From an uncultured Halobacteria archaeon (GTDB taxonomy: Bacteria; Pseudomonadota; Gammaproteobacteria; UBA9214): a stretch of DNA of 64,000 bases. Below are positions 4,487-55,639 of the stretch, piece after piece. The stretch lies in contig CAVYIJ010000009.1 in the NCBI GenBank assembly GCA_963768575.1, positions 27,899 to 91,898 on the forward strand. The letters run 5' to 3'. The notes under the pieces are model-generated. The model saw only the letters and a list, made by a program, of their open reading frames with translations. It was not told the DNA's origin and did not search any database. Numbering within the stretch: position 1 is the stretch's first letter; every line of letters begins with the position of its first letter. The position numbers were made by a program, and so were the translations under genes.

Positions 4487-6258
4487 GGTTGTCTCCGCCG
4501 GTCAGGGTGTCTGTGCCTGTTCGCGCCTGCTGTTCCTCGGATGCGAGGTCCGCGAAACCTGTCTGCCGTTGAGCGCAGCTGTCCGTTCCACTGCTGGTTG
4601 CTGTTGATTACGGTCGGGCGTAACAGGATCACCAGTTCGCTCTTCGAGGCAACCGAGCGGTTGTGCCGGAACATGTCGCCAACGACGGGTACGTCACCCA
4701 GGAACGGCGTGCGGGCTTCTTCGTCGCGAACCGACGTTCTTCATCAGGCCGCCCAGCACCACGATCTGGCCGCTGGCGGCACGGATAACGGTATCGGTCT
4801 CCCGGATCGTGCTGAGCGCGAGCGGGATCGACAGCTGCTCTGTAGATGGAGGTGCTGATGGCCTTGATCTTTTCCGTCACTTCGCTGATAGCCGGATGAA
4901 TATGCAGGATGACCGTAGTTGTCCTCGCTGATTTGCGGGATGACATCCAGTGCCACGCCGGAGAAGAACGGCGTCAGCGTGACATCCACGCTGGTGTTGG
5001 ATACGGTCCGAGCTGACGGTGTCGGTCTCCGTTTCCACGTCGGTGACGAAGAACTCGTCCTGCCCCACCTTGATGACGGCTTTCTGGTTGTTGACCGTGG
5101 AGATGCGCGGGCTGGACAGCACCTGCACATCGCCCTGTGTCTTGATCAGCTCGATCAGGGAATTGAAATCTTTCAGGTTGGCATCGATCGTGAACACGCC
5201 GCCGAGCGCCGTTGTGTCGAAGCCGGTCACCTGGGTGCCCCTGACCAGCGGCACCACGGTGCCTGCGAGTGCCGAGGCGCCGGTGTCGAACACGCTGCCG
5301 CCACCGGAGTGGCCGAATAGAATCGATTTGTCGGGACCGCCGAATTCAATCAATGCATTCCAGTTGATGCCGGACTGGAAGTTGTCATTCAGCATGACCT
5401 CGATGACCTTGGCCTCCAGAATGACCAGCCGGTGTGCCGCATTCTCGATGGTCTTGAGAAATTCATCTACGTTGCGCAATTCTTCCGGCAGGGCATGCAC
5501 GACAATGACGCCGGACTGTGGGTGCACCATCACCTTGCGTCCGCCTTCATCGCCGATGATCATCTGCAGGGACTCTTGCAGGTCTTTCCAGAAGTCCGAC
5601 CTGGACTCGGTGCTGACCACGCTGCCGGAAGAGACGGATGTGCCGCTATTGTCGCTGCCGGCGGTACCGCCGCGGTCTGCTGCCATTTGACTGCCGCCGC
5701 CGAACCGCTGACCTGGCCGGAACTGACGTTGTGCGCGAGCTGCCCTTGCGCACCGCGTGCAGGTAGTCGACGGTAAAGATCTGTGTGCGGATGCGGGCCG
5801 GGTAGACCTGGTAGGTGTTGCCGTTACGACGGTAACGGTAACCGTATACGTCACGCGTGGTTGAAGGCACCTCCTCGATGGTGACATCCTGCAGCGTGAT
5901 GGAAATGGTGCCGGTCACATCCGGGATGAACCACCATGTTCAGCGTGGTGCCCTTGACCAGGCCCATGAAAAATGCCCGCGCACTGCTGTTGTTGACCGA
6001 GATATCGAAGCGCGGCTCGAAGTCCGGCACGATTTCCGGGAGCTGTCATGCGCAGGGTCGGCAGCAGTGCGGCCGCGACTTCGGGCGGCGGCTGCACGGG
6101 TGCTGTTTCCGGCGTGCCGCTTACGCTTTCTTCCAGCGCGGACGTTATTTCCGGCATGTTTCCGGTCGGTCGTCTCGGCATGAGCTGGCAGCCGGTACCG
6201 TGACTGTCGCAAGTAGCAATGTCGACAGGATGAGCAGGCAGTATTTGATGGTGTTCAT
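4477..6258 (-). pseudogene. mshL: Lipoprotein secretin (MshL/PilQ/GspD family) disrupted by at least 5 single-nucleotide frameshifts
   Basis: Secretin sequence is spread over overlapping minus-strand ORFs in all three frames: lipoprotein signal MNTIKYCLLILSTLLLATVTVPAASSC (~6258), [18 protein letters not shown]0-like [13 protein letters not shown]...FTVDYL (5646-5918 ORF), KVMVHPQSGVIVV...VQVLSSPRIST (4877-5887 ORF), C-terminal VLGGLMKNV / FLGDVPVVGDMFRHNRSVASKSELVILLRPTVI (4390-4674 ORF), and S/T-rich tail ending 4 codons into mshM. Confidence 0.75.
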
Positions 6259-6310
6259 GATTGTGTGTCCACGGTTCATGGTTGTTTTTTAACGATGTCC
6301 GGTAGCAGCT

Positions 6311-7259
6311 TCAGCGTGATCTGTCTGTTTGGCGACTGCAGTAGTACACCCGTGTTTGCGTATTTCTGAGCACCGTCGCATTACCGACGGTTTCTCCCTC
6401 GGTCACAGTGGTGGCCGTTGATGACAGCCACCCGGCGTGCGGCGATACCAGCGTGGAGTTCAGTACATAGCTGCCGGCAGTTTGCGGTTGTCGTGTTTCG
6501 TACCGGCCCGTGTCGTATGGGCGGGTAGGGTCGGTCAGTGGCGTTGCGCCGACCTCCAGGGCATTGGCAAGCGCCATGAGACCGAGTGCCATGCAGCAGT
6601 GTTTGTAATCAGCGCCATCAGGGTTTGTCTCCCGGCAGGCCGAGTGTGTAGAGATCCAGCGTGATCCGTGCGTCGGGTGGCTGGTTACCTGGTAGTCAAC
6701 GCTTTCCCAGAAAAACTTCCAGGGCAGGTTTTCCAGTGCCTGCAGGTAGCGGAGGGTTGCAAGGTAACTCCCCTCCAGCTGTAATTGCAGCTGGTAACGA
6801 CCGATGCCCGCCGCGGGCAGGTTTTCTTCGCCCGGCAGTTCAACGCCGGTCAGTGGCTGGCTGCCGGCATCGACTTCCAGCAGGTTCAGGCCCTGCTCCT
6901 GTTCCAGCACCTGCTCCAGTACCTTGACCGCATGTGCGGGTGCGAGCAGTCCACCTATCCTGCTCCTGTATCTGTTTATCGAGCATCGCCAGTTGTGCGA
7001 GCATTTCATCATGCAATGAGGTGGTCCCGCCTCCGGAGGGGCCGGACAACAGGCCGCTACGCTCGCGCAACAGCTCGAGTTTCAGTTCCAGGTCGGTGAT
7101 CGCCTGATGGCTTGCCTTCTGTTGCTTCATCACCGGCTGGATCGCAAGCGTATCAGCCACGAAAAACAGCAAGGCAAGGCAGGCAACAAGCAACATGACC
7201 CGCTGGCGCAGTTCCATGGCATCAACCCTGTTGGCGAGCTGCTGTATATGCTCATGCAT
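6311..7259 (-). pseudogene. mshJ: PilO-like MshJ (frameshift near 6955) running without clear stop into an MshK-like small lipoprotein segment
   Basis: ORF 6840-7259 MHEHIQQLANRVDAMELRQRVMLLVACLALLFF (TM + coiled coil) loses sense after ...LDKQIQEQDRW; frame +1 (ORF 6311-7012) continues GGLLAPAHAVKVLEQVLEQEQGLNLLEVDAGSQ...GIGRYQLQLQLEGSYLATLRYLQALENLPWKFFWESVDYQV (PilO C-terminal-like), then MALGLMALANALEVGATPLTDPTRP (MshK-like signal peptide + DPTRP). Confidence 0.55.
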
Positions 7260-7855: not shown

Positions 7856-7981
7856 AGCGTCCCTGTTGTGTTTACCCTTCCCTGGTAATCGACGCGCTCG
7901 CCGCAGCTGCGCACAAACACGTCTGTTCCACCCGGTGCCGTTACCTGGCAGCACCCGTTGACATGGATGTTGGAAAATGAG

Positions 7982-7998
7982 TGCAAATTCCCTGCCAA
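7982..7998 (-). promoter_or_regulatory. Putative sigma-54 (RpoN) promoter for msh operon
   Basis: Minus-strand reading TTGGCAGGGAATTTGCA = TGGCA-N6-TTGCA with GG-N10-GC spacing exactly as the -24/-12 consensus TGGCACG-N4-TTGCW; ~120 nt upstream of mshI start. Confidence 0.55.
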
Positions 7999-8003
7999 TT
8001 GTT

Positions 8004-8016
8004 TAACTAACTGATA
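8004..8016 (-). promoter_or_regulatory. 13-mer TATCAGTTAGTTA (minus-strand reading), IHF-consensus-like; identical copy at 14267-14279
   Basis: Exact 13-nt identity between the two upstream regions; matches WATCARNNNNTTR; located 6 nt upstream of the sigma-54 -24 element. Confidence 0.45.
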
Positions 8017-8175
8017 TGCAATATAATAAATTCCATTGCCCAGGCGGGTGTTGACGGTTTATTGTCGTTTCGCGGAATTATGCGCCATTATTCCGGCGCA
8101 CGTGACGGGTCAGCGGTCGCAGCTGTGCGCGGCGGTCGTGTGAGACAGGATTACGGGTAGCGGGCGTGCGGCGGA

Positions 8176-9080: not shown

Positions 9081-9359
9081 ATGAAAATCACAAGAATCTT
9101 TCTGTTGTTGTCGCTGGCAGGCTGCCTGTCGGTTGCGGGTTATGCACAGGCATTCTGTTTTTCGAAAGGCAACAACCAGGGCCGAACGTATAATTACTAT
9201 TATTATCCGCTGCCTGCAGTCGGTTTTGTGCAGCAGAACTACTATGCATATCCGTATGATCCTGTGCAAATGGACAGGCGGTACGGGTACGAAGAGGCGG
9301 TTACTCCATCCAGTCTGCCGGATATCGATCGCCACCGGGACGTATGGAGTTTGAAGTAG
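9081..9359 (+). CDS. Small secreted Tyr-rich protein (signal peptide + YNYYYYPLP...NYYAYPYDP)
   Basis: 92 aa; MKITRIFLLLSLAGCLSVAGYAQA signal peptide; AGGAG RBS 8 nt upstream. Confidence 0.5.
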   Translation: MKITRIFLLLSLAGCLSVAGYAQAFCFSKGNNQGRTYNYYYYPLPAVGFVQQNYYAYPYDPVQMDRRYGYEEAVTPSSLPDIDRHRDVWSLK

Positions 9360-9436: not shown

Positions 9437-11587
9437 CTATGGCTTTACCAGGTTGATGGTCCCGGGTGTTTCCTGGTTCTGCAGCATTTTGAGAATCTCG
9501 TCCGCGGATACAGGTTTGCTGAACAGGTAACCCTGGACGACGTGGCATCCATGTTGCCTGAAGAAGTTCAGCTGCTTGACGTTTTCGACGCCTTCCACTA
9601 CCAGTGAAAGGTTCAGGCTGTGCGCCATTGCTATGATGGTCTGGGCTATCAGCGTCCCTTCCTTGCTGTCCGGTATTTCGCTGACGAATGAGCGGTCGAT
9701 TTTAACAGTGTCGATAGGCAGCTTGCGCAGGTACCCGAGCGATGAATAACCGGTGCCGAAATCGTCCATGGCAATACTCATCCCCATTTTCTTGAGTTTT
9801 TCCAGGGTGATGATTGCCGAATCGATATTACGCATGGCGACATTCTCGGTAACTTCCAGCTCGGCCCTGTCCGCGCCTATCCCGGCTTCAGCCAGTGCAT
9901 TTTCCACGATTTTTTCGAAACCCGGCCTGGAGAGTTGTGAAGACGACAGGTTGACGGCCATGGTTAGATCATCGAAGCCGGCATTGTGCCACTCACGCAG
10001 TTGTCTGAAAGCCGTGCGCAGTACCCATTCGCCGATCGGGATGATAAGTCCGCTCTCTTCGGCGATGGGAATAAACTCGAGCGGGCTGACATGCCCCATG
10101 GCCGGATGCTTCCAGCGCAGCAATGCCTCCACGCCTATGATGACATTTCGCGTTATGTCTATTTTAGGCTGGTAGACCAGGTACAGCTGCTCCTTTTCGA
10201 GCGCTGTTCTCAGGTTCGTCTCCAGTGCCAGTTTTTTGCGCGATCCGGCATTCATTTCGGCGGTGTAGAAGACCATCTTGTTGCGCCCGATCTCTTTTGC
10301 GCGATACATGCTGATATCCGCATGCTTGACGAGTGTATCCGCGTCAGAACCGTCGAATGGATATATGCTTATGCCAACACTGGTGGTGATATGCAGTTCG
10401 TGACCATGACAGGAAATGGGCCCCGTCAGGGACTTGATGATCTTGGCGCCGATCTTGCCGGCATCCGAGGCACTGTTGATGTTCGGCAGAAGGACCATGA
10501 ATTCGTCGCCGCCAAAGCGTGCAACAGTGTCGCCTTCACGTACGCAATTTGTCAGTCGACGCGAGATCACCCTCAGTAACTGGTCGCCGATGCCATGGCC
10601 AAGCGAGTCGTTAATGATCTTGAAGCGATCGAGATCGAGAAACAACAATGCCAGCATGCTTTCCTGGCGACAGGCCTGTGCAAGTCCGGACTTGATGCGA
10701 TCATTCAGCAGGCTCCGGTTTGGCAGCCCGGTTAGAGCGTCATGGTGCGCATGGTACTCCATGCGCTTTGCCACGGCTTCCGCCTGTTCTTTCGACGATT
10801 CGAGCTGTGAATTGGCAACCTCCAGTTCGCGGGTGCGCATGGTGACCCTGTTTTCCAGCTCTGCCTGGTATGTTTTCAGCTGGCTGTCGCGTGTCTGGAT
10901 CTCGTCCAGCATGGTGTTGAAGTCAACGATCAGGTTGCCGAGTTCATCCTGGCCGCGCCCTGCAACGCGCAGGGCGAAGTTCTTTTCGGTGCTGATGCGG
11001 CGGGCGATTGCTGACAGCCCGAGTAACGGATCGGTAATAATGCGCTGCAGTTGCGCACTGAGTATGAATGCGACCAGCAGCGAGGCGGCCAGTACAATTG
11101 CAACAATGCCGAGAAACCATGCCAGTCGGTCATGGATCGCATTTATGTCTGATCGCAGGTAGACCAGGCCGATGAGGTCGTCTTCGTAAATGATCGGACT
11201 GAAGGCCTCTGCATACTTGTCGGTGAATTTCAATTCCTGCTTGTGTGGTCCCGGTCGAGGTAGCTCACCGTAGAATCCTTCCCGCCGGTAGGTGGCGAAC
11301 ACGCTGCCGTCCTTGTGATACAGGACTCCGGCCTTCACATATTTTTGCGACTTCAGGAATCCAAGTGTCTCCAGGGCGGCTTCGGGGTCGCCGAACAGCA
11401 TGGCGGCGGTGCTGTTGGCGGCAATCATGGACGCCAGGGTTGTGAGGTTGTCACCGACGGTTTTCTGCGCGTACAACCTGTCCGATGTTATGAAGGCAAC
11501 ACTGGCGAGCAGCAGCGATGCCATGGTTATGGTCATGCTGATAAGCATGAGTTTGTGGCGTACTGAAATATTCTTTAACGGCTTCAT
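9437..11587 (-). CDS. Membrane sensor with periplasmic CHASE8-like domain, HAMP, GGDEF and EAL domains (YfiN/TpbB-like with extra EAL)
   Basis: 716 aa; TM1 residues ~12-35, periplasmic segment LASMIAANSTAAMLFGDPEAALETLGFLKSQ...VLYHKDGSVFATY, TM2, HAMP, coiled coil, RFGGDEF, EAL motifs EALLRW / DDFGTGYSSL / KIDRSFV. Confidence 0.85.
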   Translation of the reverse strand: MKPLKNISVRHKLMLISMTITMASLLLASVAFITSDRLYAQKTVGDNLTTLASMIAANSTAAMLFGDPEAALETLGFLKSQKYVKAGVLYHKDGSVFATYRREGFYGELPRPGPHKQELKFTDKYAEAFSPIIYEDDLIGLVYLRSDINAIHDRLAWFLGIVAIVLAASLLVAFILSAQLQRIITDPLLGLSAIARRISTEKNFALRVAGRGQDELGNLIVDFNTMLDEIQTRDSQLKTYQAELENRVTMRTRELEVANSQLESSKEQAEAVAKRMEYHAHHDALTGLPNRSLLNDRIKSGLAQACRQESMLALLFLDLDRFKIINDSLGHGIGDQLLRVISRRLTNCVREGDTVARFGGDEFMVLLPNINSASDAGKIGAKIIKSLTGPISCHGHELHITTSVGISIYPFDGSDADTLVKHADISMYRAKEIGRNKMVFYTAEMNAGSRKKLALETNLRTALEKEQLYLVYQPKIDITRNVIIGVEALLRWKHPAMGHVSPLEFIPIAEESGLIIPIGEWVLRTAFRQLREWHNAGFDDLTMAVNLSSSQLSRPGFEKIVENALAEAGIGADRAELEVTENVAMRNIDSAIITLEKLKKMGMSIAMDDFGTGYSSLGYLRKLPIDTVKIDRSFVSEIPDSKEGTLIAQTIIAMAHSLNLSLVVEGVENVKQLNFFRQHGCHVVQGYLFSKPVSADEILKMLQNQETPGTINLVKP

Positions 11588-11594
11588 TGCCCGC

Positions 11595-12182
11595 CTATTG
11601 TTTTGATTTTACGATGTTGGCGAGGGACAACAGCTTCGAGCTGATGGTGATACCGGCATAACCGGCCGCCTCGGTGTTGATATCGAACCGGACCTTGTTG
11701 TCGATCAACTTGAACCCGATAATGCCCCCATGTTGTGTAAATCCGGATATCTCACTGACAGTCAGTATGGGCAGGTCACGCAATTGATATAAAATATCGT
11801 CAAGCCTCGCTTCAAACGACTTGTCGATATAGGCGAGGTTGCATTGTTTTATGAATACCAGGCTGTCGTAGAACTCCGCAACCTCTATGTCATAGTGTTC
11901 TACAACCAGCACATTGTTGTGGACTGTCCGCCCGATAAGAGAGTCAATCAGGCTGCCAAACGGATTTTTGCCGATGATGCACAGCTTGAAGTTATCCTCG
12001 ATCGGTGCCGGCCAGCTTGAAAATCGGGAAAAGTTGTACAGGAAAGCGGTTTTTACACGGTATTCAGTCGACGAATTATCTGCAGCCGGCACGCTGGCGG
12101 GTGCCAGCCATAGCATGATCAGCGCCAGTCCAAGAACCGGGCGCCTCACAGACTGCACCAGTCGTTGAAGCGGCCTGAGCAT
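11595..12182 (-). CDS. YfiR-like periplasmic protein (DUF4154 family)
   Basis: 195 aa; signal peptide then YRVKTAFLYNFSRFSSWP motif characteristic of YfiR/DUF4154; start ATG overlaps TBDR stop (ATGA). Confidence 0.7.
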   Translation of the reverse strand: MLRPLQRLVQSVRRPVLGLALIMLWLAPASVPAADNSSTEYRVKTAFLYNFSRFSSWPAPIEDNFKLCIIGKNPFGSLIDSLIGRTVHNNVLVVEHYDIEVAEFYDSLVFIKQCNLAYIDKSFEARLDDILYQLRDLPILTVSEISGFTQHGGIIGFKLIDNKVRFDINTEAAGYAGITISSKLLSLANIVKSKQ

Positions 12183-14242
12183 TACTGAAAGGACCAGCTC
12201 ACCTTGCCATATATGCTGCGCTCGATCTCGGTCGGGTAGGACACGATGAAGTCCGGATTGAACTCGCGGTGTGTGCTGTCGAACAGGTTCTGGCCGATCA
12301 GCGACAGGTCAAGACCGGGCTTCGGCGTCCAGCCCAGTCGCGCGTCAAACGCCACGTAGTCTTCGATCTTCGTGGGAGACACGGGATTGGTATCGGTCAG
12401 GCTGCCAACGTAGCGCACACCGGCATCCATCTCGAGGTTGTTGCCCAGGTCTGCCGACACCCACAGGTTGGCTGTGTGCTCCGGTGAGGCATTCTCTGCA
12501 AGCTGTGAAAAGGGATCCGCGCTGGCGTTGATGAGCTTCAGGTCCATATCCAGGAAAGTGTAATTGGCATTGACAGCCAGCCATGGTCTGGCGGTCCAGC
12601 GCACATCGATCTCGATGCCTTGTGTGGTGCCTTCCATGTTGTTCGCAAACAGGCCCGTTGGACCCGCAAGCTCAACGGTTCTCAGGTCCTCGTAGTCGTT
12701 GTAATAAGCGGCCACGTCAACCGTAACCGAACCCGCGATTGCGCGGCGGAAGCCGAGTTCATAGGCAATGAGGTCCTCGGACTCATACGCGTCACTACCC
12801 AGGACGGTGGCGCCACCAAATGCCGGCAATACCAGGCTGACATCGTGCTCGCCACGGGCCGGAGTGCGCACGGCGCGTGAAATGCTGCCCCAGACCGTAT
12901 TGCCCACCTCCGTCACCCAGGCCGCGCGGATATTGGGCTGGAACTCGAAGCCAGTGAAATCATTCTCTTCGAACTTGCTGCCCACCGTTACCTTCAGACG
13001 GTCGCTCACGCTAATCTCGTCCTGGATGAAGCCAGAGAACAGGTCGACACTGCGGGACAGGGGTGTCAGGGTGAAAATCGGAGTGGGAACGGTGTCATCA
13101 TCGATGTTGCGGTAATTCAGCCCCCAGATGATGTCGTTTTTCGCGTTCAGGGCAATGTTATGCTGGAAATCGAGATCGATCGTCTGCCGGTCCTCGTACA
13201 ACGCAAGACTTTCGCGGCTCACATGATCGAAATACCCCTGCAGCGTGAAACTCGAGTCCGGGCTGAGAGTGCGTGTCCAGCGGTACAGCAGGTTGCCGCC
13301 TTTGTTATCGGCGGTGTCAACCGTCGGTGGTCCCGCAACGGCAATTTGTACGTTCTGGCCGCTGTTGCCCTCGTAGTAGTCACCCTGCAGGGTGTGCAAG
13401 TCCTTGCCCTTGTCCCAATCCGTGCGAAAGCCCGCCTGGGCCATATCTGCATCGTCATGCGCGGTGCTCACACCAGGGAAGGGGATGGGCTCGCCGGTAT
13501 CCTTTTCATTGCCCATGGCATAGACGCGATAATTGACGCCGGACTTGCTGACGCCGCCATGGCGGAGGTTGAGCATTCCTTCCAGTTCATTACCTGCGGC
13601 AGCGGTCACCAGCGTGCCCTGGGTGTCGGCGGAGGACTTGGTAATGATATTGATGACACCGTTGACGGCATTCGCGCCCCACAGTGTGCCGCCCGGTCCG
13701 CGAATAACCTCGATGCGCTCGACGTCTTCCAGCATGACCGTATTGGCATCCCAATAGACACCGGCAAACAGCGGGGTATAGACGGAACGACCGTCAATCA
13801 GCACCAGCAGCTTGTTGGCGAAGCGGCTGTTGAAACCACGCGAGGTGATGGCCCACTTGTTGGCATCGATGTGCGCGACCTGCAGGCCGGGGACCCGGCG
13901 CAGGGCATCGGGGATATTGGTTACACCCCAACGACGCAGATCTTCGTTCGTGATGACGAACACCGCGGCAGCGGCCTCTGACTTTTTCGTCTTCTTTTTT
14001 GATACCGAGGTAATCTCGACATCCATCAGGGCTTCGAGGCTCATGCCCATGAAGTCGTCGGAAACCTGTGCCGCGGGCACCATGACCGGCATGCAGGCCA
14101 GTGCGCACAAAAGCGCTGACAGCCAGCGCGTGGCGTGCTGCCCGGATTGCGTGTTGCGCTTCCCCCAAAATGGCAGGATGCGTGCGGGTTTCCCCTCCCG
14201 GTTCGGACCCCTGCAAGGGCTTGAGTGTGTCCCGTGATGCAT
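12182..14242 (-). CDS. TonB-dependent outer-membrane receptor (plug + 22-strand barrel); true start codon uncertain
   Basis: 686-aa ORF; plug DVEITSVSKKK...VITNEDLRRWGVTNIPDALRRVPGL...IDGRSVYTPLF..RIEVIRGPGGTLWGANAVNGVINIITK; C-terminal aromatic ...YGKVSWSFQ; signal peptide appears only after residue ~35 so the annotated ATG may be too far upstream. Confidence 0.85.
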   Translation of the reverse strand: MHHGTHSSPCRGPNREGKPARILPFWGKRNTQSGQHATRWLSALLCALACMPVMVPAAQVSDDFMGMSLEALMDVEITSVSKKKTKKSEAAAAVFVITNEDLRRWGVTNIPDALRRVPGLQVAHIDANKWAITSRGFNSRFANKLLVLIDGRSVYTPLFAGVYWDANTVMLEDVERIEVIRGPGGTLWGANAVNGVINIITKSSADTQGTLVTAAAGNELEGMLNLRHGGVSKSGVNYRVYAMGNEKDTGEPIPFPGVSTAHDDADMAQAGFRTDWDKGKDLHTLQGDYYEGNSGQNVQIAVAGPPTVDTADNKGGNLLYRWTRTLSPDSSFTLQGYFDHVSRESLALYEDRQTIDLDFQHNIALNAKNDIIWGLNYRNIDDDTVPTPIFTLTPLSRSVDLFSGFIQDEISVSDRLKVTVGSKFEENDFTGFEFQPNIRAAWVTEVGNTVWGSISRAVRTPARGEHDVSLVLPAFGGATVLGSDAYESEDLIAYELGFRRAIAGSVTVDVAAYYNDYEDLRTVELAGPTGLFANNMEGTTQGIEIDVRWTARPWLAVNANYTFLDMDLKLINASADPFSQLAENASPEHTANLWVSADLGNNLEMDAGVRYVGSLTDTNPVSPTKIEDYVAFDARLGWTPKPGLDLSLIGQNLFDSTHREFNPDFIVSYPTEIERSIYGKVSWSFQ

Positions 14243-14266: not shown

Positions 14267-14279
14267 TAACTAACTGATA
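14267..14279 (-). promoter_or_regulatory. Second copy of 13-mer TATCAGTTAGTTA (IHF-like) just upstream of TBDR operon
   Basis: Exact identity with 8004-8016; adjacent TTGCCAATT also shared with msh upstream region. Confidence 0.45.
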
Positions 14280-14465
14280 GAAATGAATTAGTTGCCAATT
14301 ATCCCCGTGAGTTCCGCGCATACCCGTGCGGCAGAGATCCCCCTTTCAGGGAAGGCTATCGGCGTGGCTGGATCCATACTTAAGCACCTGAATGGTGCGA
14401 ATTACCGGTCGCCGGGCAGGGTCCGGTCGACGGTCAAGAGCCCGCGGGCGGGGCCGGACGGGTGG

Positions 14466-14824: not shown

Positions 14825-15451
14825 TCACTCCTTTATATATACATATTGCCAGTGTCCGCCTGTCAGCGTCTGCAAGGCCTGCAGCAGGGCCGGGCCGGGT
14901 ATGGCCTCGGACGGGTATATGCCACTGATTTCAACGAAGACTTGACCGAAGCCGGCGTTCTTGTGCAGGCTCCAGTCGGGCAGTTCACCGTGATAGCCGC
15001 AGGATGTGCATGACCACTGCAACGCTGCGGGATTCTCCCGCCATTGCCGTAGATGTGTCTCCCAGTCCGCGACCGGCTCGCTGCATTGCGGACAGCGCGG
15101 CGCACGGGCTTGCGGGTCGCCGCGGAAGTGCAGGATATCCGTGCACAACAGCCTGACGAAACAAAAACTGCCGTTTGCAAGCGCGGCGGCCAGTGTGGCG
15201 TTATCGGCGGGCGGTTCCAGTTCGATATTGGGCGCGCAGCCCAGGAAGCTGACCAGTTGCAGGAAGTCGTCGCCGGTCGGGTAAAATTCATTGCCATCGC
15301 ACGCGCCCGGCGCACCGATCAGGCCGATTGCCTGCAGACCGGCAGCCAGCTTGCCGCAATCGTCGAGCGTGGCATGTGGATCTGCCGGCAGCAGGATGAG
15401 TTTATGGGCGGGCACGGCTGTTCCTTGCGTGGATTCGTGGGGGTGGATCAA
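14825..15451 (-). CDS. Hypothetical protein with two CxxC pairs (zinc-ribbon-like)
   Basis: 208 aa; CPQCSEPVADW ... CTSCGYHG. Confidence 0.4.
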   Translation of the reverse strand: MIHPHESTQGTAVPAHKLILLPADPHATLDDCGKLAAGLQAIGLIGAPGACDGNEFYPTGDDFLQLVSFLGCAPNIELEPPADNATLAAALANGSFCFVRLLCTDILHFRGDPQARAPRCPQCSEPVADWETHLRQWRENPAALQWSCTSCGYHGELPDWSLHKNAGFGQVFVEISGIYPSEAIPGPALLQALQTLTGGHWQYVYIKE

Positions 15452-15486: not shown

Positions 15487-16203
15487 GTGATCATGCCGGA
15501 AAATGTCCCGTTCTCGATACACGCGCTGGAACTCGGTCCGATGGAAAATTTCATCTACCTGGTGCACGACCATGCCAGTAATCGCGCGGCCGTGGTCGAT
15601 CCGGCCTGGGAGGTCCCGACCGTGCTGGCGCTTGCCGAGCGTCATGGCATGCGGATCACGGATATCCTGTTAACGCACAGCCACCATGACCATATCAACG
15701 GTATCGGCGCGGTGCTGGACCACACCGATGCGCAACTGCACCTGATGAAAGCGGAAGCGCAGTTCTGGGGGCAGGGACTCGATCTGCCGACGCTGCACCA
15801 CGGTGGCGACGTCATTCGGCTGGGAGAAACGGAGATCAGTGCCCTGCACACGCCGGGACATACCCCCGGTTCGGCCTGTTACCACGTCGGTAATGAACTG
15901 ATAACCGGCGATACGCTGTTCGTGTTCGGTTGCGGACGGTGTGACCTGGCGGGCGGTGACCCGGAACAAATGCATGCCACCCTGAAAGACATGGCGACGC
16001 ATTTTCCGGCCGCTACCGTGATTCGTCCGGGACATAATTACGCGGAAAAAGGTACGTCGACCCTGCAGGAGCAGGTCGAAGGTAACCCGTTCATGCATTT
16101 CGACGACAGCGATCGTTTCATCCGTTATCGCATGCATTATCACGATCAGCACCGTCACTCGCCCTACCGGCCGGTGCGCAGGGGCGAGGAGATGCCGGAC
16201 TGA
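15487..16203 (+). CDS. Metallo-beta-lactamase-fold hydrolase (glyoxalase II-like)
   Basis: 238 aa; HSHHDHINGIG (HxHxDH) motif, downstream His/Asp ligands. Confidence 0.8.
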   Translation: MIMPENVPFSIHALELGPMENFIYLVHDHASNRAAVVDPAWEVPTVLALAERHGMRITDILLTHSHHDHINGIGAVLDHTDAQLHLMKAEAQFWGQGLDLPTLHHGGDVIRLGETEISALHTPGHTPGSACYHVGNELITGDTLFVFGCGRCDLAGGDPEQMHATLKDMATHFPAATVIRPGHNYAEKGTSTLQEQVEGNPFMHFDDSDRFIRYRMHYHDQHRHSPYRPVRRGEEMPD

Positions 16204-26326: not shown

Positions 26327-27517
26327 ATGTCCAAGGAAAAATTTGAGCGTACCAAACCGCATGTGAACGTAGGCACCATTGGTCACGTTGATCATGGCAA
26401 GACGACGTTGACGGCGGCGATCACGAAGGTGATGGCGGAGCTGCAGGGTGGCGAGTTCAAGGCGTATGACCAGATTGACAATGCGCCGGAGGAACGCGAG
26501 CGCGGCATCACGATTGCGACGGCGCACGTGGAGTACGAGTCGCCGGCGCGTCATTACGCGCACGTGGACTGCCCGGGACACGCGGACTACGTCAAGAACA
26601 TGATCACGGGTGCGGCGCAGATGGACGGAGCGATTCTGGTGGTGAGTGCAGCGGACGGACCGATGCCGCAGACGCGCGAGCACATTTTGCTGAGTCGTCA
26701 GGTGGGTGTGCCTTACATACTGGTATACATGAACAAGGCGGACCAGGTTGATGACGCCGAGCTGCTGGAGCTGGTGGAGATGGAGATTCGCGAGCTGCTG
26801 GACTCTTATGATTTCCCGGGTGATGACACGCCGATCGTGACGGGTTCGGCGCTGAAGGCGCTGGAAGGCGACACCAGTGATATCGGTGTGCCGTCGATTG
26901 TGAAGCTGGTTGATGAGATGGACAAGTACATACCGGAGCCGGAGCGAGCGATCGACGGTGATTTTCTGATGCCGGTTGAGGACGTATTTTCGATTTCGGG
27001 TCGTGGCACGGTGGTGACGGGGCGCGTGGAGCGCGGCGTCGTCAAGGTTGGCGAGGAGCTGGAGATTGTCGGCATCAAGGACACGCTGAAGACGACGTGC
27101 ACGGGTGTTGAGATGTTCAGGAAGTTGCTGGACCAGGGTCAGGCGGGAGACAACGTGGGTGTATTGTTGCGTGGCACCAAGCGTGAAGAGGTGGAGCGTG
27201 GCCAGGTGCTGTGCAAGCCGGGGAGCATCAAGCCGCACACGAAGTTTGAGTGTGAGGTATACATTCTGAGCAAGGACGAGGGTGGTCGTCACACGCCGTT
27301 TTTCAGTAATTACCGTCCGCAGTTTTATTTTCGCACGACGGACGTAACGGGTGCGTGTGATTTGCCGGAAGGCGTGGAGATGGTGATGCCGGGCGACAAC
27401 ATCAAGATGACGGTGTCGCTGATAGCGCCGATTGCAATGGAAGACGGACTGCGTTTCGCGATTCGCGAGGGTGGCCGTACCGTGGGCGCCGGCGTGGTGT
27501 CGAAGATCCTTGAATAA
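26327..27517 (+). CDS. tufB: Elongation factor Tu (copy B)
   Basis: 396 aa [28 protein letters not shown]...; follows tRNA-Thr as in thrU-tyrU-glyT-thrT-tufB arrangement. Confidence 0.97.
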
Positions 27518-43340: not shown

Positions 43341-44531
43341 GTGTCCAAGGAAAAATTTGAGCGTACCAAACCGCATGTGAACGTAGGCACCATTGGTCAC
43401 GTTGATCATGGCAAGACGACGTTGACGGCGGCGATCACGAAGGTGATGGCGGAGCTGCAGGGTGGCGAGTTCAAGGCGTATGACCAGATTGACAATGCGC
43501 CGGAGGAACGCGAGCGCGGCATCACGATTGCGACGGCGCACGTGGAGTACGAGTCGCCGGCGCGTCATTACGCGCACGTGGACTGCCCGGGACACGCGGA
43601 CTACGTGAAGAACATGATCACGGGTGCGGCGCAGATGGACGGAGCGATCCTGGTGGTGAGTGCGGCGGACGGTCCGATGCCGCAGACGCGCGAGCACATT
43701 TTGCTGAGTCGTCAGGTGGGTGTGCCTTACATACTGGTATACATGAACAAGGCGGACCAGGTTGATGACGCCGAGCTGCTGGAGCTGGTGGAGATGGAGA
43801 TTCGCGAGCTGCTGGACTCCTATGATTTCCCGGGTGATGACACGCCGATCGTGACGGGTTCGGCGCTGAAGGCGCTGGAAGGCGACACCAGTGATATCGG
43901 TGTGCCGTCGATCGTGAAGCTGGTTGAGGAGATGGACAAGTACATACCGGAGCCGGAGCGGGCGATCGACGGTGATTTTCTGATGCCGGTTGAGGACGTA
44001 TTTTCGATTTCGGGTCGTGGCACGGTGGTGACGGGGCGCGTGGAGCGCGGCGTCGTCAAGGTTGGCGAGGAGCTGGAGATTGTCGGCATCAAGGACACGC
44101 TGAAGACGACGTGCACGGGTGTTGAGATGTTCAGGAAGTTGCTGGACCAGGGTCAGGCGGGAGACAACGTGGGTGTGTTGTTGCGTGGCACCAAGCGTGA
44201 AGAGGTGGAGCGTGGCCAGGTGCTGTGCAAGCCGGGGAGCATCAAGCCGCACACGAAGTTTGAGTGTGAGGTATACATTCTGAGCAAGGACGAGGGTGGT
44301 CGTCACACGCCGTTTTTCAGTAATTACCGTCCGCAGTTTTATTTTCGCACGACGGACGTAACGGGTGCGTGTGATTTGCCGGAAGGCGTGGAGATGGTGA
44401 TGCCGGGCGACAACATCAAGATGACGGTGTCGCTGATAGCGCCGATTGCAATGGAAGACGGACTGCGTTTCGCGATTCGCGAGGGTGGCCGTACCGTGGG
44501 CGCCGGCGTGGTGTCGAAGATCCTTGAATAA
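43341..44531 (+). CDS. tufA: Elongation factor Tu (copy A)
   Basis: 396 aa; identical to tufB product except D/E at one position (VDEMDKY vs VEEMDKY). Confidence 0.97.
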
Positions 44532-55112: not shown

Positions 55113-55282
55113 GCAGCCGAGCATTTATGCAAGCCATTGATTTATTTATATATATGATAAGTGAACGTGAGGCGGCCGCCTGCCGGCGGGTGTCTATTTG
55201 TGTTTGATTTATTGGCGGCCCGAAGCTATCCTTACCTGCTTTTCGCGCCGCGCTCTTGAAGCGTGTGCTGGAGACGATTTAA

Positions 55283-55639
55283 ATGGCCCGTATAGCCGGA
55301 ATTAACATTGCAGATCACAAACATGCGGAGATCGCCCTGACGGGTATCTACGGCATCGGCCGTGTTACTGCGCGCAAAATTTGTGGCGATTCCGGTATCA
55401 AGCCGGAAATCAAGATCAAGGACCTGACCGAGGCCGAACTTGATTCACTGCGTAACGAAGTGACCAAGTACAACATCGAGGGTGATTTGCGACGCACCAT
55501 CTCCATGAACATCAAGCGCCTGATGGACCTGGGTAGTTACCGGGGTATCCGGCATCGCCGTGGCCTGCCGTTACGCGGGCAGCGGACACGAACCAACGCA
55601 CGTACCCGCAAGGGTCCGCGTCGTCCAATCCGCAAGTAA
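55283..55639 (+). CDS. rpsM: 30S ribosomal protein S13
   Basis: [26 protein letters not shown]... Confidence 0.97.

Follow-up and report, generated by a model that had tools for sequence, protein, structure and literature searches.

Two identical 13-mers with the IHF consensus, at a predicted sigma-54 promoter of an msh-type pilus operon and in the predicted leader of a neighboring c-di-GMP operon

Described systems and the two loci

Sigma-54 promoters assisted by IHF form a well-known class, such as Pu of the TOL plasmid, Klebsiella nifH, and E. coli glnHp2. Another familiar IHF site is H′ of lambda attP, TATCAATTTGTTG, which is preceded by an A-tract. In E. coli, the c-di-GMP gene pdeH (yhjH) is controlled by FliA. 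A c-di-GMP enzyme of P. putida, BifA, is likewise expressed from a sigma-28 (FliA)-dependent promoter (PMC5300878), and the published sigma-28/FliA consensus is TAAAGTTT-n11-GCCGATAA (PMC2859248). The orp operons of Desulfovibrio have IHF-assisted, enhancer-dependent sigma-54 promoters (PMC3897727), and at the hcp (T6SS) promoters of Vibrio, IHF sites are found 16 bp from the sigma-54 motifs; the IHF consensus is cited there as WATCA(A/R)NNNNTTR (PMC5963220). In V. cholerae, c-di-GMP drives MshE (PMC4624765, PMC4624772), and a GGDEF-EAL-like gene, mshH, heads the msh-I operon (bioRxiv 10.64898/2026.09.27.754871). The same recent preprint on msh promoters has no mention of a sigma-54/IHF architecture of the V. 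cholerae msh promoters (bioRxiv 10.64898/2026.09.27.754871).

The window (the whole 64-kb stretch of DNA analyzed here) contains an msh-type pilus assembly operon (locus 1) and an operon for a TonB-dependent receptor (TBDR), a YfiR-like protein and a GGDEF-EAL protein, that is, a c-di-GMP module (locus 2; Table 1). The 13-mer TAACTAACTGATA is present on the + strand before each of them, and a first-pass annotation had pointed to this pair as IHF-like sites in the same orientation relative to the two minus-strand operons. Indeed, exact matching and the genes identified by Pfam confirmed both positions and the common orientation, and the 13-mer as read on the minus strand, TATCAGTTAGTTA, fits the IHF consensus WATCARNNNNTTR at 9/9 specified positions in both copies. 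There is no third exact copy in the window, and the sole near-copy, with 2 mismatches, is located at 15891-15903 within a metallo-beta-lactamase-fold gene.

The motifs predict that the msh promoter belongs to the class of IHF-assisted sigma-54 promoters: as in its known members, activator boxes are followed by an A/T tract with a WATCAR-N4-TTR core and then by the -24/-12 element. Unlike the case of Vibrio hcp with its 16 bp, the core ends 6 bp from the -24 element, closer than in many characterized IHF-dependent sigma-54 promoters. The msh promoter also differs from the known IHF/sigma-54 promoters in its operon, which encodes MSHA-type pilus assembly in a gammaproteobacterial clade that is uncultured. 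Like lambda attP H′, the sites have a 13-bp asymmetric core with T-ATCA-R-N4-TT-R as its fixed letters, preceded on the 5′ side by an A/T-rich element; they differ in that position 6 is G, not A, in both copies of the window and in most orthologs, and the context is transcription instead of recombination.

The TBDR operon resembles bifA and pdeH in that GGDEF/EAL genes lie behind a TAAA-N15-GCCGATAA-type promoter, by which late flagellar expression would be linked to c-di-GMP turnover. It is unlike them in having T(T/C)AAG as the -35 element and a leader of ~105 nt with a conserved IHF-like site, and in encoding also a TonB-dependent receptor and a YfiR-like protein. The pilus operon, in turn, shares with V. 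cholerae msh the order mshI/J/K/L/M/N/E, including the MshEN-domain ATPase, and a GGDEF-EAL-type gene upstream of the assembly genes; in contrast to V. cholerae, its first gene is short and PilN-like, and the GGDEF-EAL gene is in a separate operon three genes away.

Table 1. Genes, predicted promoters and candidate sites at the two loci (positions in the window; promoter-relative numbers refer to the inferred msh start).
Feature	Position	Strand	Remarks
PilN-like first gene of msh assembly operon, 197 aa	7262..7855	-	ATG 7855; homologs named PilN or with PF05137
Predicted sigma-54 promoter TGGCAGGGAATTTGCA	7982..7997	-	GG at -25/-24, GC at -13/-12; perfect spacing
Octamer TGCCAATT	7993..8000	+	its TGCCA is the complement of the sigma-54 -24 TGGCA
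IHF-consensus core TATCAGTTAGTTA, locus 1	8004..8016	-	~-45 to -33 relative to inferred sigma-54 start ~7971; exact match
A/T-rich tract AATTTATTATATT	8020..8032	-	directly 5′ of core, as in canonical IHF sites
Proximal enhancer-like imperfect inverted repeat ACGACAATAAACCGTCA	8052..8068	-	~-97 to -81; conserved block in ortholog alignment
Distal enhancer-like inverted repeat GCGCCGGAATAATGGCGC	8082..8099	-	~-128 to -111; homologous block palindromic in orthologs
Small gene, 136 aa	8176-8586	-	no Pfam/NCBIfam family; position conserved across clade
Small gene, 116 aa	8720-9070	+	no Pfam/NCBIfam family; position conserved across clade
Small gene, 92 aa, signal peptide	9081-9359	+	no Pfam/NCBIfam family; position conserved across clade
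TBDR/YfiR/GGDEF-EAL operon	9437..14242	-	Pfam; same gene order in relatives
CHASE8-HAMP-GGDEF-EAL protein	9437-11587	-	Pfam
YfiR-like DUF4154 protein	11595-12182	-	Pfam
TonB-dependent receptor (TBDR)	12182-14242	-	Pfam
IHF-consensus core TATCAGTTAGTTA, TBDR-operon leader	14267..14279	-	exact match; 24 nt upstream of ATG 14242
Predicted sigma-28 (FliA)-type promoter TTAAGTATGGATCCAGCCACGCCGATAG	14356..14383	-	TTAAG-N15-GCCGATAG
Small gene, 98 aa	14466-14762	-	no Pfam/NCBIfam family; position conserved across clade
Small gene, ~200 aa, weak zinc-ribbon-like match	14825-15451	-	no Pfam/NCBIfam family; position conserved across clade

The msh upstream region in orthologs

With the PilN-like protein as query, graded metagenomic relatives from 99% down to ~35% identity were obtained, and their source names point to uncultured marine Gammaproteobacteria. 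Synteny is kept in the contigs of the relatives, with TBDR, YfiR, GGDEF-EAL, two small divergent genes, the 136-aa gene and the msh operon. Ten further orthologous TBDR upstream regions came from scanning metagenomes with a TBDR alignment. Species-representative genomes scanned with TBDR yielded only relatives of at most 40% identity, too distant for footprinting, and the 13-mer is absent from 13 distant loci. In the window, Pfam found a secretin, AAA_22, TPR, and an MshEN+T2SSE ATPase (MshE) after the PilN-like gene, in agreement with the earlier assignment of an msh-type pilus assembly operon; the genes assigned downstream of the second 13-mer were found by Pfam as well.

The sigma-54 assignment was made on GG and GC exactly 10 bp apart within TGGCAC-N5-TTGCW, and TGGCAGGGAATTTGCA, which has both, is the only such motif of the window to lie outside coding sequence and ahead of a gene. 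In a gap-free stack of orthologous sequences anchored on the -24 element, TGGCA-N7-TTGC is invariant with fixed spacing in 11/11 distinct sequences, including that of the distant relative L048. Taking G7984/C7983 as -13/-12, we infer that msh transcription starts near 7971. The first-pass annotation had the msh copy of the 13-mer abutting the -24 element, and a gap of 6 nt from TGGCAGGGAATTTGCA, next to a promoter invariant in the orthologs, bears this out.

The core was compared in 10 distinct sequences with ~61-99% identity in the adjacent PilN-like protein. Its variants are TATCAGTTAGTTA, ATTCAGTCAGTTA, ATTCAGCCAGTTA, AATCAATAGGTTG, AATCAATAGCTTG, AATCAGCAACTTA, AATCAGTAACTTA, TTTCAATAATTTA, AAACAGTTACTTG, and TTTCAGTTACTTG. 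C-42, A-41, T-35 and T-34 are invariant (10/10), positions -40 and -33 hold a purine and positions -45 and -44 an A or T in every sequence, and position -43 is T in 9/10. By contrast with these positions, variation is free in the N4 middle and in the 6-nt stretch that separates the core from the -24 element, while no indels occur between the core and the invariant promoter. Scored against the consensus, five of the ten sequences reach 9/9 and the other five 8/9, and the positions homologous to the A/T tract AATTTATTATATT are A/T-rich in every ortholog. This conservation is the pattern expected of the IHF consensus WATCA(A/R)NNNNTTR, and an asymmetric, bipartite core behind a 5′ A/T tract is what has been published as the signature of IHF sites. 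A point against the IHF reading comes from L048, in which the sigma-54 promoter and the A/T tract are kept and the core is lost (2/9).

Farther upstream, there are two conserved, partly palindromic boxes of a CGGC-N5-8-GCCG type, which are probably sites of an enhancer-binding protein. Their counterparts in the relative L028 are ACGGCAAAAAGCCGTCA for the proximal box, a block also given as ACGGCAAAAAGCCGT, and CGGCAGATTTCTGCCG for the distal box. The proximal box is loosely like what we take to be the FleQ box, GTCaNTAAAtTGAC.

In the proposed mechanism, the msh promoter would be an enhancer-dependent sigma-54 promoter of the classical kind, with this site as its bending element. The boxes at ~-128/-111 and -97/-81 would be followed by the A/T tract and WATCAR-N4-TTR at -63/-33, and these by TGGCA-N7-TTGC at -26/-11. 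An IHF bend near -50 would then loop the bound activator ATPase onto the closed complex of sigma-54 RNA polymerase. The midpoint of the proximal box (~-89) and the promoter (~-18) is ~-53, where the IHF bend would fall.

Two further observations concern the neighborhood of this operon. The metagenomic contig of the relative L014 is otherwise 99.7% identical to the window, and 161 of the 191 mismatches and all 41 indel positions between the two fall in 5660-6970, which covers the mshJ 3′ end, mshK, and the 5′ part of mshL. In this tract, tblastn with MshL/J/K of the relatives jumps between reading frames, and therefore the secretin gene and its neighbors are frameshifted in the window; pseudogenes, a recombined divergent tract, or an assembly/consensus artifact may be behind it. 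In L048 (1-8000), the msh operon is located beside csrA and a flagellin/fliD/fliS/fliT cluster, in place of the c-di-GMP module.

The TBDR operon, its promoter motif and its leader

The most conserved feature of locus 2, ahead of the 13-mer, is a sigma-28-type promoter motif. Its -10 element GCCGATAG is at 14356-14363 on the minus strand, and T(T/C)AAG-N15-GCCGATA(G/A) is kept in all of the 14 close orthologous sequences that were compared, the window included. A 42%-identical relative outside this set, L039, has no such motif. Compared with the published consensus, the window promoter agrees at 7/8 positions of the -10 element and 6/8 of the -35 element, with a spacer one base longer. Furthermore, the flagellin gene of L048 has a promoter-like motif, TAAAGTTT-N11-GGCGTTAA. 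By the conserved motif, the c-di-GMP module would be part of the late flagellar regulon, the role of FliA being predicted from it. Other promoters were also sought: a simple sigma-70 promoter scan gave none near either 13-mer site, inspection of the A/T tracts by eye gave no consistent -35/-10 pair, and in orthologs with long leaders no sigma-54 promoter with correct GG-N10-GC spacing was found downstream of the locus-2 site.

The locus-2 core starts 77 nt (about 70) downstream of the end of the -10 motif, and therefore it is in the predicted leader, which is long in the window (~105 nt), not upstream of the promoter. The two copies had been taken as upstream-region sites of the same kind, which does not hold for the second one in view of this conserved promoter. 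A site downstream of the promoter is a non-classical arrangement, a point against the IHF reading. Among the 14 sequences, the core is 9/9 in the window, L030, L040, L041, and L047, and 8/9 in L032, L033, L034, L036, and L038, so that at least 8/9 is reached in 10/14; it is 7/9 in L019, L028, and L046, and 5/9 in L035, four weak matches that speak against IHF. In most orthologs, no other stretch of the 200 nt following the -10 element fits the consensus better than the core. An A/T tract precedes the core here too: in the window, A/T makes up 68% of the 25 nt on the 5′ side of the core vs. 35% of the rest of the leader, and in the orthologs the values are 52-72% vs. 21-47%. L030 and L047 are without the TBDR gene, and L030 is also without YfiR; both keep the promoter, the leader and the IHF-like site, now ahead of whichever genes of the operon are left.

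Some side observations belong to this leader and its gene. The regions of the two relatives without TBDR are 5600-6200 in L030 and 3350-3830 in L047, and L047 retains a remnant of the TBDR N-terminus. The start of TBDR is uncertain, which affects the closeness of the 13-mer to the translation start: the ORF, with ATG 14242 and a good AGGAG, begins ~35 codons before a signal-peptide-like segment, and a gene caller placed the start in the 99% relative 50 codons further downstream. In a subclade (L032-L034, L038, and L040), the leader has an extra block of ~70 nt, which follows the IHF-like site and precedes the TBDR start. It contains hairpin-like motifs with GGA and, directly ahead of the ribosome-binding site, a conserved ...GGCTTGA(A/C)NNTTTGATGCAAC... 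box. One idea is that this block is a CsrA-type target.

Taken over both loci, we think it probable, with room for doubt, that the 13-mers are binding sites of IHF or an IHF-like heterodimer, as predicted from the footprints. IHF at locus 2 would most likely act in the early transcribed region, where a roadblock or a bend would modulate transcription from the sigma-28-type promoter. Of the earlier proposal, the IHF/sigma-54 reading is supported by ortholog footprints at the consensus positions, a free N4 and an invariant sigma-54 promoter. The other part, specific co-regulation of the pilus genes and the c-di-GMP module by a common protein, is not sustained: IHF is a global architectural protein, and hence two IHF sites do not show specific co-regulation, and the two operons appear from their motifs to differ in sigma factor, the pilus operon using sigma-54 and the c-di-GMP operon sigma-28. 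This pair of sigma factors is the more informative regulatory inference. The architecture itself is that of ordinary promoters with nothing categorically new, and co-regulation is at best of a trivial kind. What is gained is a testable map of the promoters of an MSHA-type pilus operon and of a neighboring c-di-GMP module in an uncultured marine gammaproteobacterial clade, in which the predicted promoters would place both operons in the flagellar sigma-54/sigma-28 hierarchy governing the motile-to-attached switch. The argument is carried by ortholog footprinting, an exact short repeat between two promoters being weak evidence alone.

Alternative readings of the exact repeat

Among the alternatives, the one that survives best is a dedicated sequence-specific regulator other than IHF, which would co-regulate the pilus operon and the c-di-GMP module, the identity of its sites resulting from selection for equal affinity. 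In the clade that conserves both elements, the two operons lie side by side without exception, and the operons are functionally linkable because MshE has a c-di-GMP-binding MshEN domain (PMC4624765, PMC4624772). Moreover, from the observed column frequencies, the probability that the locus-1 site equals the locus-2 site in 13/13 letters is ~7e-4; even when the post-hoc selection is taken into account, the coincidence is sizeable, and it is a point against the IHF reading. We nevertheless consider such a regulator unlikely: conservation falls precisely on the IHF-consensus positions and leaves the N4 free, the two sites are at non-equivalent positions (-45/-33 of a sigma-54 promoter vs. ~70-80 nt downstream of the inferred sigma-28-type start), and no candidate regulator gene is conserved beside either locus.

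Evidence against such a regulator also comes from the relatives. In five of them (L019, L028, L030, L046, and L047), the two sites within one genome agree at only 6-8/13 bases, and two identical copies are found only in the window and in the 99%-identical L014, so the argument that had been drawn from exact identity is not supported. For the IHF-type sites preferred here, the exact identity would be a coincidence of two independently evolving consensus sites, confined to the lineage of the window. Gene conversion between the two sites was also considered and is unlikely, since identity ends exactly at the 13-mer and does not extend into the flanks. It seems quite unlikely, too, that the sites are a functional pair, through which a single architectural or dedicated protein couples expression of the c-di-GMP sensor-enzyme module to that of the c-di-GMP-driven MSHA pilus, and that in the lineage of the window they converged on one identical high-affinity sequence.

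A different possibility, to which we also give a rather low probability, is that the locus-2 element works at the level of mRNA, for instance as a translational enhancer rich in A/U or as a target of a small RNA or protein, its likeness to IHF sites being incidental, or that its A/T tract is a second, sigma-70-type promoter. The core falls within the predicted 5′ UTR at a distance of 24 nt from ATG 14242, adjacent to the AGGAG ribosome-binding site ahead of that codon, the leader has several GGA motifs, and -10-like hexamers occur within the A/T tract of some orthologs. However, the same bipartite pattern is present at locus 1 upstream of the start site, and in other orthologs the element is ~70-100 nt from the ATG and so is not tied to the ribosome-binding site. 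A riboswitch or structured leader was rejected, since an Rfam search of the leader with E values as high as 10 gave no match and the leader folds no better than shuffles (z = 0.58), and no consistent -35 element was seen for a second promoter.

That the repeat arose by pure chance and has no function at either place was weighed against the repeat content of the window. The annotation had given a chance expectation of ~0.002, which is the wrong null, being the value for recurrence of one pre-specified 13-mer and not of any 13-mer. The window has ~120 maximal exact direct repeats of at least 13 nt, some from a tuf duplication and ~110 others scattered. When crude non-coding segments (~10.8 kb total) were shuffled segment by segment, 75% of the shuffles had at least one 13-mer common to two segments, with a mean of 2, and p was ~0.001 only if these two promoter regions were fixed in advance. 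The consensus WATCARNNNNTTR is also degenerate, with 7 matches in the window, several of them inside genes. The repeat alone is no evidence of function. Pure chance is nonetheless a very improbable account of the sites, being largely refuted by the ortholog alignments with their phylogenetic footprints at both loci and by the position of the locus-1 core, fixed relative to the invariant sigma-54 promoter.

The octamer TGCCAATT had been listed as a second shared feature. It does occur on the + strand at 7993-8000 and 14293-14300, but on opposite sides of the 13-mer and at 3 nt in one case vs. 13 nt in the other, and the sharing is coincidental. At locus 1, AATTGGCA is the -24 element plus three unconserved bases, and the copy at 14293-14300 is not conserved in the locus-2 orthologs.

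Finally, a fragment of a dispersed repeat or the end of a mobile element is hardly credible: the + strand word TAA-c-TAA-c-TGA has stops in all three frames, as in some termini and engineered linkers, but both copies are at orthologous, vertically inherited positions, the 13 distant loci have none, and a linker or element end was rejected on the grounds of only two copies in 64 kb and unrelated flanks (20/60 identical over 30 nt on each side), from which it also follows that the 13-mers are neither a duplicated segment nor a repeat element. The long exact repeats of the window have their source in two near-identical tuf (EF-Tu) copies at 26327-27517 and 43341-44531, which are in the usual tRNA-tufB-secE-nusG...rpoBC...rpsLG-fusA-tufA-S10 context. 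An alpha-operon leader is found at 55209-55315 by Rfam.
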